DNA from: Escherichia coli
GTDB lineage: Bacteria; Pseudomonadota; Gammaproteobacteria; Enterobacterales; Enterobacteriaceae
DNA length: 64,000 nucleotides
NCBI RefSeq assembly: GCF_013122565.1
Contig: NZ_CP053258.1
Strand: one strand, 5' to 3'
Below, piece by piece: positions 1,885-40,689 of this stretch. Each line of letters starts with the position of its first letter. The first letter of the stretch is position 1. The notes under the pieces are model-generated. The model was not told the origin of the DNA. It made no database searches and was given only the letters and a program-made list of their open reading frames with translations. A program made the position numbers and the translations under genes.

Positions 1885-3876
1885 ATGTCCTCACGTAAAG
1901 AGCTTGCCAATGCTATTCGTGCGCTGAGCATGGACGCAGTACAGAAAGCCAAATCCGGTCACCCGGGTGCCCCTATGGGTATGGCTGACATTGCCGAAGT
2001 CCTGTGGCGTGATTTCCTGAAACACAACCCGCAGAATCCGTCCTGGGCTGACCGTGACCGCTTCGTGCTGTCCAACGGCCACGGCTCCATGCTGATCTAC
2101 AGCCTGCTGCACCTCACCGGTTACGATCTGCCGATGGAAGAACTGAAAAACTTCCGTCAGCTGCACTCTAAAACTCCGGGCCACCCGGAAGTGGGTTACA
2201 CCGCTGGTGTGGAAACCACCACCGGTCCGCTGGGTCAGGGTATTGCCAACGCAGTCGGTATGGCGATTGCAGAAAAAACGCTGGCGGCGCAGTTTAACCG
2301 TCCGGGCCACGACATTGTCGACCACTACACCTACGCCTTCATGGGCGACGGCTGCATGATGGAAGGCATCTCCCACGAAGTTTGCTCTCTGGCGGGTACG
2401 CTGAAGCTGGGTAAACTGATTGCATTCTACGATGACAACGGTATTTCTATCGATGGTCACGTTGAAGGCTGGTTCACCGACGACACCGCAATGCGTTTCG
2501 AAGCTTACGGCTGGCACGTTATTCGCGACATCGACGGTCATGACGCAGCATCCATCAAACGCGCAGTAGAAGAAGCGCGCGCAGTGACTGACAAACCGTC
2601 CCTGCTGATGTGCAAAACCATCATCGGTTTCGGTTCCCCGAACAAAGCCGGTACCCACGATTCCCACGGTGCGCCGCTGGGCGACGCTGAAATTGCCCTG
2701 ACCCGCGAACAGCTGGGCTGGAAATACGCGCCGTTCGAAATCCCGTCTGAAATCTATGCTCAGTGGGATGCGAAAGAAGCAGGCCAGGCGAAAGAATCCG
2801 CATGGAACGAGAAATTCGCTGCTTACGCGAAAGCTTATCCGCAGGAAGCCGCTGAATTTACCCGCCGTATGAAAGGCGAAATGCCGTCTGACTTCGACGC
2901 TAAAGCGAAAGAGTTCATCGCTAAACTTCAGGCTAATCCGGCGAAAATCGCCAGCCGTAAAGCGTCTCAGAATGCTATTGAAGCGTTCGGCCCGCTGTTG
3001 CCGGAATTCCTCGGCGGCTCTGCTGACCTGGCACCGTCTAACCTAACTCTGTGGTCTGGTTCTAAAGCAATCAACGAAGATGCTGCGGGTAACTACATCC
3101 ATTACGGTGTTCGCGAGTTCGGTATGACCGCGATTGCTAACGGTATCTCCCTGCACGGTGGTTTCCTGCCGTACACCTCCACCTTCCTGATGTTTGTGGA
3201 ATACGCACGTAACGCCGTACGTATGGCTGCGCTGATGAAACAGCGTCAGGTTATGGTTTACACCCATGACTCCATCGGTCTGGGCGAAGATGGCCCGACT
3301 CACCAGCCGGTAGAGCAGGTTGCTTCTCTGCGCGTGACCCCGAACATGTCTACATGGCGTCCGTGTGACCAGGTTGAATCCGCGGTTGCGTGGAAATACG
3401 GTGTTGAGCGTCAGGACGGCCCGACTGCGCTGATCCTCTCCCGTCAGAACCTGGCGCAGCAGGAGCGTACCGAAGAGCAGCTGGCAAACATCGCGCGCGG
3501 TGGTTATGTGCTGAAAGACTGTGTCGGTCAGCCGGAACTGATCTTCATCGCGACCGGTTCTGAAGTTGAACTGGCTGTCGCTGCCTACGAAAAACTGACT
3601 GCTGAAGGCGTGAAAGCGCGCGTGGTTTCCATGCCGTCTACCGACGCATTCGACAAGCAGGACGCGGCTTACCGTGAGTCTGTCCTGCCGAAAGCGGTTA
3701 CTGCACGCGTTGCGGTAGAAGCGGGTATTGCTGACTACTGGTACAAGTATGTTGGCCTGAACGGTGCTATCGTCGGCATGACCACCTTCGGTGAATCTGC
3801 TCCGGCAGAGCTGCTGTTTGAAGAGTTCGGCTTCACCGTTGACAACGTTGTTGCGAAAGCCAAAGCGCTGCTGTAA
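1885..3876 (+). CDS. tktA: transketolase 1
   Basis: 663 aa from [12 protein letters not shown]; RBS ggagt upstream; matches TktA as recalled. Confidence 0.95.
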
Positions 3877-3895
3877 TCAGTAAGACGTTTTGTGA

Positions 3896-4243
<348 letters not shown>

Positions 4244-4245
4244 CA

Positions 4246-4270
4246 AGGGCCGCAAATGCGGTCCTTTTTT
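4246..4270 (+). terminator. hairpin plus T-run (third, degenerate copy of the BIME hairpin)
   Basis: aagggccgcaaatgcggtcc followed by ttttttatt. Confidence 0.5.
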
Positions 4271-5177
4271 ATTTAGTTGAGATAAACGGAACGGTGCTGC
4301 CGGGGATCATGGTATCGGGCAGTTTACCGTCCCAACGTTCGGCAGTGGTGAGGGCTACAAGTCCGGGATTATCCCGCAGAGCTTCACCGCGCAGGCGGAT
4401 TGCTTCTGCTTCAGCCGCACTTTTTAAACGAATAGTTTCAGCCTCTGCCGCGCCTCTTACGCGAATAGTTTCCGCTTCTGCTTTGGCTGCCGCCAGTTTA
4501 CTGTCTGCTTCTGCCTGGGCCTGAGTTACCGCTATTTGCGCCTGGATTTTCTCTGTTTCCAGATTTTGCTTACGCGTGGCAATGGCGACTTCTGCTTTCA
4601 TTCGGTCTTCAATCGACTTTTCATAAGCGTCAGAAAAATCAATATTTTCAATCTGGACCCCGTCAATTACCACTGGCCCAACAACCGCTTTGCGCATCGC
4701 ATTTTGCAGATCCTGAACCAGTTTTGTACGATCCTGTACGGCGCTGATGGCGGTATATTGGCCGAAAACGTTCTCCAGTTGAGTTGGCAACTGACGGACA
4801 ATCAGACGATCTTTTAATGCTTCAATGGTGTTGTAGGTGGTATAAACCGCGCCTGCTTCTGAAGGTTTAATGTGGAAGCTGACTGATACTGTCATTTGTG
4901 CCGGTTGCTGGTCGCGGCTGTAGGCCTGTAATCCCTGATAGACCACAGCCTGATTACGCGTGGAAATTTTCTCCACGCTTTCCATAAACGGGATCTTAAA
5001 ACCCAGACCCGGCTCGGCAACTTTTACGATTTTTCCGTAGCGCAGCAAAATGCCGCGTTCACCTTCATTAACGGTGTAATACGAGAGAAATGGCAGCACA
5101 ACCACGGCAAGCACGCCAATGGCGATAGCAATAGATTTTTGAGGGCGAAATGAGGTTATAGAAACAGGTGCTTTCAT
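4269..5177 (-). CDS. SPFH/band-7 (prohibitin/HflC-like) membrane protein
   Basis: 302 aa; N-terminal TM helix, SPFH core, Ala/Glu-rich C-terminal repeats; not YqiK/QmcA/HflKC by sequence recall. Confidence 0.75.
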   Translation of the reverse strand: MKAPVSITSFRPQKSIAIAIGVLAVVVLPFLSYYTVNEGERGILLRYGKIVKVAEPGLGFKIPFMESVEKISTRNQAVVYQGLQAYSRDQQPAQMTVSVSFHIKPSEAGAVYTTYNTIEALKDRLIVRQLPTQLENVFGQYTAISAVQDRTKLVQDLQNAMRKAVVGPVVIDGVQIENIDFSDAYEKSIEDRMKAEVAIATRKQNLETEKIQAQIAVTQAQAEADSKLAAAKAEAETIRVRGAAEAETIRLKSAAEAEAIRLRGEALRDNPGLVALTTAERWDGKLPDTMIPGSTVPFISTK

Positions 5178-5554
5178 GACAATCTTCCTTGAGTAAAGTG
5201 TGGGAATATGTCACATGAGATGAGGAGAAAACAGCCGACAGGTGAGAATTCAGAATCTATAAAGGGGTATAGCGAAAAAACATTGCATTAGAAAAGTATG
5301 TTTTCGAACATTCAATAAATAAATAGAGACATGCATCACAAATACAATAACAAACAAAGCGTTGATTTTGTGATAAACATAACAAATACAAAGTCGACTT
5401 TAAAAATATCAATTTCATATTGTTGTTATTTAAGCTTTTATTATTTTGGTTTGTGGGGTTTTTCTTCTCGCGTACCCAATTGCTTTCATTAAATCGCACG
5501 AGTATTTTATTTTTACCGCCGGACGGTACCCTAAAAATAAAATAAGGATAATTT

Positions 5555-5998
5555 ATGCGGCTTAGTGATTATTTTCCAGAATCATCAATCTCAGTTATAC
5601 ATTCAGCAAAAGATTGGCAGGAAGCTATCGATTTCTCGATGGTATCATTGCTGGATAAAAACTATATCAGCGAGAATTACATTCAGGCAATTAAAGATTC
5701 CACTATTAACAATGGCCCTTATTATATTCTCGCACCAGGCGTGGCAATGCCTCATGCGCGACCGGAATGTGGGGCGCTTAAAACCGGGATGTCTTTGACG
5801 TTACTTAAACAAGGCGTTTATTTCCCGGAGAATGACGAACCGATTAAATTACTCATCGGACTTTCTGCTGCCGATGCCGATTCGCACATTGGCGCTATTC
5901 AGGCGTTAAGTGAATTACTGTGCGAAGAAGAAATACTCGAACAACTCTTAACAGCATCATCAGAAAAACAATTAGCGGACATTATCAGCCGCGGATAA
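5555..5998 (+). CDS. cmtB: PTS mannitol-like IIA component
   Basis: 147 aa, matches CmtB as recalled. Confidence 0.9.
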   Translation: MRLSDYFPESSISVIHSAKDWQEAIDFSMVSLLDKNYISENYIQAIKDSTINNGPYYILAPGVAMPHARPECGALKTGMSLTLLKQGVYFPENDEPIKLLIGLSAADADSHIGAIQALSELLCEEEILEQLLTASSEKQLADIISRG

Positions 5999-29496: not shown

Positions 29497-29557
29497 TTTT
29501 TATTTCATTTTGGCAGAGGAGCATAGAATAGTTCCATGCTCCCGTTAAACAGGGTGA

Positions 29558-29818
29558 TTATTTATAGAAAATTACAGTGGCGTGGATATAATTTTTACCG
29601 GAGAAAGAACTGATGTAGTAATTACTGGCTTGCAATTCTTCCGCTTTCTCTTTGATTTGACTTTCAACGCCCGCTGGATTGCTATTGTGTGTGGAAATAC
29701 TCACTTTTGATATCTGTTCAAGATTATTGTCCGGTTTTTGTATCTCGGTTGCTGCAAATACGTGTCCTGTGAGAGTGCAAAGAAATAACGCGGCAAATAA
29801 ATTTTGCTTAATAGACAT
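29558..29818 (-). CDS. DUF1471 (YdgH/BhsA/McbA-family) secreted small protein
   Basis: 86 aa with signal peptide MSIKQNLFAALFLCTLTGHVFA. Confidence 0.6.
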   Translation of the reverse strand: MSIKQNLFAALFLCTLTGHVFAATEIQKPDNNLEQISKVSISTHNSNPAGVESQIKEKAEELQASNYYISSFSGKNYIHATVIFYK

Positions 29819-29834
29819 AATAACTCCTTTTATA

Positions 29835-40243: not shown

Positions 40244-40286
40244 AAATTTCTCTTCTGCTGTTTATTTGATACCCATCACACTTTCA

Positions 40287-40322
40287 TCTCCCGGTTTTTT
40301 CGCCGGGAGATTTTCCTCATTT
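40287..40322 (+). terminator. ubiI intrinsic terminator
   Basis: tctcccgg ttttttcg ccgggaga followed by ttttcctcattt. Confidence 0.65.
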
Positions 40323-40689
40323 GAAATAAACTAATTTCACCTCCGTTTTCGCATTATATTTTCTAATGTCACGAATTTTTGATTTAGTGTTTTTTGACAT
40401 TTTTTCAGCTCTTAATATTGCCTTATTCAAATTAACTCTCTCATCACATCATCTTTATATAGAAATTGGTGTGTTTTTTGGTTTTTTATTCCGTTGCGAT
40501 TTTGGCGTTTTTTAACCATAAGCTAATGTGATGATCAATTTTACCTTATGGTTAACAGTCTGTTTCGGTGGTAAGTTCAGGCAAAAGAGAACGATTGCGT
40601 TGGGGACCGGGAGTGGCTCCGATGCTGGGTTTCGTGGTGATAATTTCACCATGAAAAGTTGTCAGCCCCGCTTATTCAATGAGGACAAG

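Follow-up and report, generated by a model that had tools for sequence, protein, structure and literature searches.

The 377-bp tract at positions 5178-5554 of the Escherichia coli DNA analyzed here (the window, 64,000 nucleotides of contig NZ_CP053258.1) is probably a CRP-activated, H-NS/StpA-bound divergent control region that serves both the cmt operon and an SPFH gene, and this, rather than the flank of an insertion, is the label for cmtBA-yggPFDC and its divergent neighbor that we consider correct. The tract fills the entire space that separates the divergently transcribed SPFH gene (minus strand) and cmtB (plus strand) (Table 1); its borders are exact, and the same 377-bp spacer is annotated by RefSeq in matching E. 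coli genomes. cmtB heads the cmtBA-yggPFDC cluster, and RefSeq genomes with the same DNA show tkt upstream and cmtA downstream. We propose that the spacer would regulate the SPFH gene leftward and cmtBA-yggPFDC rightward. Two cAMP-CRP operators in its AT-rich core would allow CRP to activate cmtB, as has been shown for the K-12 allele and as conservation suggests here. The AT-rich spacer, together with the AT-rich cmtB gene, would form a high-affinity patch for H-NS and StpA, as has been shown in uropathogenic E. coli (UPEC) CFT073 and is expected here, and expression of the operon would stay low unless silencing is overcome by CRP and, probably, a specific signal, much as in bgl. The last 78 bp would provide a conserved leader or core-promoter block with a palindrome. 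In these respects the spacer is ordinary and largely already described, and the polymorphism of its haplotypes is the only, modest, new point.

Table 1. Coordinates of the spacer elements and of the genes on either side (positions in the window)
Feature	Position	Strand	Description
SPFH/Band 7 gene	4269..5177	-	302 aa; Pfam PF01145, E = 5.6e-32; RefSeq 'prohibitin family protein'; transcribed away from the spacer
SPFH-proximal part of spacer	5178..5290	-	absent from K-12-type genomes
AT-rich hypervariable core	5291..5476	.	~75% AT; 186 bp; homologous between E. coli haplotypes at only 61-74% identity
Conserved block GTTTTCGAACATTCAATA (GTTTTCG and TTCAATA)	5300-5317		immediately 5' to the distal CRP operator; conserved in every haplotype, K-12 type and E. 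albertii among them
Distal CRP-like operator AGAGACATGCATCACA (predicted)	5325-5340	.	11.0 bits, 7th-best match in 64 kb
Proximal CRP-like operator TGTGATAAACATAACA (predicted)	5369-5384	.	15.4 bits, 2nd-best match in 64 kb
Conserved block T(T/C)GACTTT	5394-5401
Conserved block TTGTTATTTAA	5423-5433
Conserved cmtB-proximal block	5477..5554	+	78 bp; 98.7% identical to K-12-type genomes
13-nt perfect A/T inverted repeat TATTTTATTTTTA / TAAAAATAAAATA	5503..5544	.	flanks a G+C mini-hairpin, TACCG-CCGGA-CGGTA; just upstream of the cmtB ribosome-binding site
cmtB	5555..5998	+	147 aa; PTS EIIA, mannitol family (EIIA-2); Pfam PF00359, E = 4.2e-30; GC 42%

The spacer contains 31.8% GC (68.2% AT), compared with 51.5% GC for the window as a whole, and an AT content this high occurs in only 0.23% of 377-bp windows across the 64 kb. 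The minimum for windows of this length, 30.2% GC, overlaps the spacer itself. Among the 30 intergenic regions of at least 40 bp, which have a median of ~45% GC, the spacer ranks second lowest, after 40244-40527 (31.3%). Within it, the segment 5287-5470 reaches 75-79% AT per 100 bp, which occurs at three places in the window, and if cmtB (58% AT) is counted in, the AT-rich patch extends over ~800 bp. The strong AT-richness claimed in the initial annotation agrees with the measurements; the A/T runs mentioned there are present but modest, numbering five, each of 5-6 bases.

What the initial annotation missed was specific regulatory content, in the form of two conserved CRP operators and a published CRP activation of the cmtB promoter. 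We scanned the window with a CRP weight matrix built from 104 ChIP-seq sites in the table for enterotoxigenic E. coli (ETEC; PMC4287617), excluding the cmtB site, and the spacer is predicted to carry both operators, of the TGTGA-N6-TCACA type, in the present allele. The score of the proximal site was reached by none of 2000 dinucleotide shuffles of the spacer. The proximal site is centered 178.5 nt and the distal site 222.5 nt upstream of the cmtB ATG, at a spacing of 44 bp, and the distal operator is homologous by position to the site, CGTGTTGTAGATCACA, published for K-12 and ETEC. The distal offset is the same in every Escherichia lineage examined, with a 6-nt shift in E. albertii, and the proximal offset is kept in six of the eight alleles compared and is 172.5 in E. 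albertii, where the shift results from a 6-nt indel nearer the gene. CRP-like sites are found at both offsets in the K-12 type (14.0 and 12.8 bits), E. whittamii (16.1 and 16.4 bits), Escherichia sp. MOD1 (14.6 and 14.8 bits) and strain SCPM (8.5 and 8.8 bits), and at the shifted positions in E. albertii (16.8 and 13.5 bits); in F11 and CFT073, two B2 strains with near-identical alleles, only the distal site is present and the proximal site is lost. The distal site of the window, with the half-site AGAGA, is weaker than in other lineages; relative to K-12, the window combines a weaker distal site with a stronger proximal one.

This register is maintained in DNA that otherwise diverges considerably, since a comparison of E. 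albertii, the K-12 type and the remaining alleles gives only ~60% identity around the CRP sites. Invariant columns number 10 among the 20 half-site positions, 2 among the 12 of the site spacers and 38 among the 154 in the rest of the core, and a conservation template test for the CRP sites was borderline (p ~0.05). From a distance of 178-222 nt upstream of the ATG, CRP may activate from class I/II positions or may counteract silencing from afar.

For the K-12 allele, CRP activation of the cmtB promoter region is already known, because SELEX, ChIP-seq and crp-mutant fusion data have been published. Shimada et al. (2011) listed cmtB as a new CRP target in Genomic SELEX, placed the CRP site in the cmtBA-yggPFDC/tktA spacer, and found that the activity of a K-12 cmtB promoter fusion was lost when crp was mutated (PMC3105977). 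In ETEC H10407, Haycocks et al. (2015) reported a CRP ChIP-seq peak for cmtB at the same site, with a FAT value of 16 that is among the five highest in the rows of their Table S3 examined here (PMC4287617). The peak coordinates in that study are ~188-196 bp lower than those of RefSeq NC_017633.1 at three sites in the same part of the chromosome, and after correction by ~195 bp, the offset given by two neighboring sites, the cmtB peak center falls ~7 bp from the distal site. The proximal site is reported in neither study. The K-12 and ETEC regions resemble that of the window in locus, downstream operon, 78-bp proximal block and distance of the CRP sites from the ATG; they differ in that the window has the SPFH gene on the other side and a 186-bp core that is only 61% identical to the K-12 type.

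The initial annotation had also described the tract as a typical H-NS nucleation site. This idea is supported for the orthologous locus of UPEC CFT073, because cmtB is strongly occupied there, and we infer similar binding for the window allele. CFT073 has the same tkt-SPFH-spacer-cmtBA layout, and its spacer resembles that of the window in length and AT content, but the two are only ~79% identical, and in CFT073 the proximal CRP-like site has been lost. Occupancy was scaled from 0 to 1, with a cut-off of 0.07, and is given as per-gene averages rather than as a footprint of the spacer; CFT073 cmtB shows values of 0.585 for H-NS and 0.54 for StpA (Dataset S1E, PMC9765446), and a higher H-NS occupancy is found in 10 of the 84 rows of this dataset examined. 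H-NS values in the same dataset are 0.176 for c3523, listed beside cmtB and taken to be the SPFH open reading frame (ORF), 0.108 for cmtA and 0.103 for yggP. CFT073 cmtB is still flagged as bound in the hns stpA double mutant, as are only 12% of bound genes; this residual signal is ascribed to the paralogue Hfp, and such genes are regarded as the highest-affinity sites (PMC9765446). The searched main texts yielded no direct link of cmtB or cmtA to H-NS, the searched literature no data on cmtB expression in hns mutants, and the IPOD-HR supplements no mention of the locus.

A minor observation concerns the annotation of this CFT073 locus. In its RefSeq record (NC_004431.1), the SPFH gene is annotated as a frameshifted pseudogene (positions 3093-3996 of the extracted locus), and Hustmyer et al. 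(2022) placed several single-base insertions in the gene among suspected record errors (PMC9765446). The CFT073 SPFH gene is therefore probably intact.

The DNA features that can accompany such binding, without being obligatory, do not add support. Curvature, which the initial annotation had proposed to compute, is not predicted by a wedge model: the end-to-end/contour ratio of the spacer is 0.96-0.99 (no better than the 34th percentile), compared with 0.69-0.77 for other AT-rich spacers in the window. Nor does the spacer contain a strong match to the high-affinity H-NS motif TCGATAAATT, its best being a single 8/10 match, with no meaningful enrichment. Both results speak for the alternative that the AT-richness is ordinary promoter composition, with no meaningful H-NS binding here and regulation by CRP (plus a specific regulator) alone. 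Several promoter spacers in the window are indeed nearly as AT-rich (31-38% GC), and the K-12 promoter fusion was active enough to reveal its dependence on CRP. We nevertheless consider this explanation unlikely: the CFT073 orthologue is among the strongest targets of the H-NS paralogues, and the AT-rich patch continues through cmtB well beyond the length of the spacer.

A second alternative is that the tract is mainly a flank of foreign, AT-rich DNA brought in by an SPFH insertion, and that it keeps cmt cryptic by plain H-NS nucleation and silencing, without specific regulatory content. Its high AT content and the strong H-NS/StpA occupancy of CFT073 cmtB are compatible with such an origin, as is the distribution of the SPFH gene, which some two thirds of E. 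coli genomes lack: the gene with the full spacer is present in about 1815-1825 of 5426 complete genomes, whereas the others (K-12, BL21, O157 etc.) have tkt, a 313-bp spacer and cmtB. The gene order in relatives, however, largely refutes it. The SPFH gene is flanked by tkt and cmtBA in E. whittamii (100% amino-acid identity), Escherichia sp. MOD1-EC7003 (99%) and E. albertii (96%), and it adjoins tkt in Pseudocitrobacter (85% identity), so that the SPFH insertion assumed in the initial annotation has to be abandoned. Moreover, the K-12-type spacer is equally AT-rich without the SPFH gene (32.3% GC) and is homologous to that of the window; mobile-element hallmarks were not seen at the SPFH border, where the only repeats are REP/BIME units; the GC content of the SPFH gene, 49.3% compared with 51.5% for the window, is not deviant; and the conserved CRP operators, with the published activation by CRP, constitute specific content. 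Taken together, these points make a foreign flank very improbable.

The simplest reading of these comparisons is that the tkt-SPFH-cmtB order is ancestral in Escherichia, and that the K-12 layout would have arisen by deletion of the SPFH gene and ~113 bp upstream of it, because E. albertii and E. whittamii have the SPFH gene at this same position. The structure of the K-12-type spacer fits this expectation, since it retains the corresponding terminator: it opens with a hairpin whose homologue is the bidirectional terminator between tkt and SPFH, a pair having changed in a compensatory manner, and after the hairpin it is homologous to the window from position 5292 onward (local alignment z = 6.7 relative to shuffles). 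High identity between K-12-type genomes and the window is confined to 5477-5554. In the part of the spacer that these genomes do not have, the SPFH Shine-Dalgarno sequence is the reverse complement of 5186-5197, and a conserved extended -10-like element, TGACATATT, is found on the minus strand as the reverse complement of 5205-5213; we read it as a putative SPFH promoter element.

On the far side of the SPFH gene, the interval from the tkt stop to the SPFH stop holds two tandem 174-bp composite REP/BIME copies (3896-4266) that are 98% identical. They match Rfam family ES036/CssrF above the gathering score and naRNA4 below it, and their number varies by strain, with none in CE-O153, none in TCM3e1 and about one in F11.

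The control region we propose also contains an unusually polymorphic segment. Relative to the window, the core is 96.8% identical in PapM-32-1, about 90% in CE-O153 and WGS1363, 74.2% in SCPM, 73.7% in F11 (B2) and 61.3% in the K-12 type, compared with 97.6% for SPFH and 97.3% for cmtB in F11 and 98.2% for cmtB in the K-12 type. Thus within E. coli the core ranges from 61 to 97% identity between flanks that are 97-98% identical, and the junction to near-identity is sharp, at 5477 (query base 300 in blastn). In contrast, 5425 of 5426 genomes carry the equally AT-rich control spacer at 40244-40527 in full length, with 93-99% identity. This polymorphism could result from recombination or from accelerated change in H-NS-bound DNA. 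A stronger formulation, which we offer only tentatively and regard as somewhat doubtful, is that 5291-5476 may be a recombining, fast-evolving regulatory cassette, present as at least four haplotypes (61-82% identical) in E. coli and its closest relatives, set between near-identical flanks with a sharp junction at 5477, and carrying the distal CRP operator in all haplotypes and both operators in most, in exact register.

It is instructive to compare the core with the switched intergenic regions described with Piggy (Thorpe et al. 2018, PMC5890482), which are likewise divergent spacers at one locus between conserved flanking genes. As in those regions, the cmt spacer alleles are less than 90% identical between conserved flanks in one species. 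Unlike them, the cmt alleles are detectably homologous, their CRP sites are in register, and one class is without a whole gene. If the haplotypes tune H-NS silencing against CRP activation differently, cmt expression would be lineage-specific. The polymorphic core, with its distal site (and mostly both sites) in register, offers a convenient natural series for studying competition between CRP and H-NS at a silent sugar operon. Beyond annotation the importance of the spacer is small; the ancestral tkt-SPFH-cmtB order may interest specialists.

Several observations bear on the strains themselves. In E. coli B2C, an IS1 element (positions 2804-3571 of the extracted locus, equivalent to ~5483 of the window) lies in the spacer between the CRP sites and the 78-bp block. 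Across the collection, 5438 places in 5404 records match the spacer, which leaves at most 34 records with an additional place, and such interruptions may account for some of these. At the loci tested, the window is 93-98.6% identical to complete E. coli genomes, and its SPFH protein matches the E. whittamii protein at 100% identity, while the DNA there is about 92-94% identical to that species; the lineage of the window seems to be a divergent or mosaic Escherichia.

Downstream of the core, the proximal block contains TTGCTT-17-TATTTT, which may be promoter-like, as well as the palindrome and a Shine-Dalgarno sequence, AAGGA. A sigma-70 and terminator consensus scan of the spacer gave no plus-strand promoter and fewer sites than in shuffles, and candidate -10 elements are ambiguous in sequence so AT-rich. 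The 13-nt inverted repeat arises in none of 500 shuffles, and the palindrome is shared by the E. coli alleles and retained in part by E. albertii. We considered an RNA-structure reading of this leader and dropped it, because the fold is no better than shuffles (z = -0.36) and the covariation is unconvincing, the covariation term of the alignment being positive (unfavorable). The palindrome could instead serve as a protein operator.

The remaining explanation, that the spacer encodes a product of its own, either a small protein of 80 or 41 aa or a small RNA, is the least credible: both ORFs exist, and a plus-strand ORF of 41-42 aa is kept in most E. coli-like alleles. The 80-aa ORF (5257..5499, minus strand, GTG start) is broken in five of eight other alleles (E. 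whittamii, Escherichia sp. MOD1, E. albertii, SCPM and CFT073), and since it is split by stops in relatives we do not regard it as a gene. The initial annotation had seen no convincing ORF in the tract, and we concur. The hydrophobic 41-aa ORF (5420..5545, plus strand; LLLFKLLLFWFVGFFFSRTQ...TLKIK) stops 9 nt short of the cmtB start codon. E. albertii and SCPM lack it, and in the window it has a TTG start and no Shine-Dalgarno sequence; its Phe/Leu-rich product is probably a chance outcome of T-rich DNA. A Pfam search of the spacer ORFs gave no match, and an Rfam search over 3700-5800 at E values up to 1 gave none in the spacer, the only matches being the REP-derived ES036/CssrF and naRNA4 in 3894-4251.

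One parallel to the proposed control region is the bgl operon, a 'cryptic' operon for a PTS sugar that H-NS silences through an AT-rich element upstream, that carries a CRP site and that is activated by IS insertion. Both are PTS sugar operons that have been called cryptic, with an AT-rich upstream region, activation by CRP and binding of H-NS, and the IS1 inside the cmt spacer in at least one strain recalls the IS activation of bgl. In contrast to bgl, an antiterminator/RAT element was not found at the cmt spacer by the Rfam search. A second parallel is the operon of the paralogous mannitol PTS, mtlADR, which also has multiple CRP sites far upstream of the ATG, with neighbors 43-44 bp apart, and whose peaks are among the strongest CRP ChIP signals in the part of the published table considered (PMC4287617). 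It differs in having five CRP sites rather than two and a control region that is not AT-rich (42.5% GC). Homology between the cmt and mtl control regions beyond the CRP sites was sought and was not significant (z = 1.0-1.7).

Some other stretches of the window share individual features with the spacer. The strongest predicted intrinsic curvature is located at ~20586 (wedge-model ratio 0.69). The region 40244-40527, which is annotated with a small protein (YqfI or hypothetical) in E. coli genomes, combines strong predicted curvature with the highest-scoring CRP-like sequence of the 64 kb, TTTGATACCCATCACA at 40265 (15.6 bits). The region 29497-29834 is AT-rich and contains a small gene of the DUF1471 (YdgH/BhsA/McbA) family; it is an accessory segment, because only 240 of 5426 E. 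coli genomes carry it.
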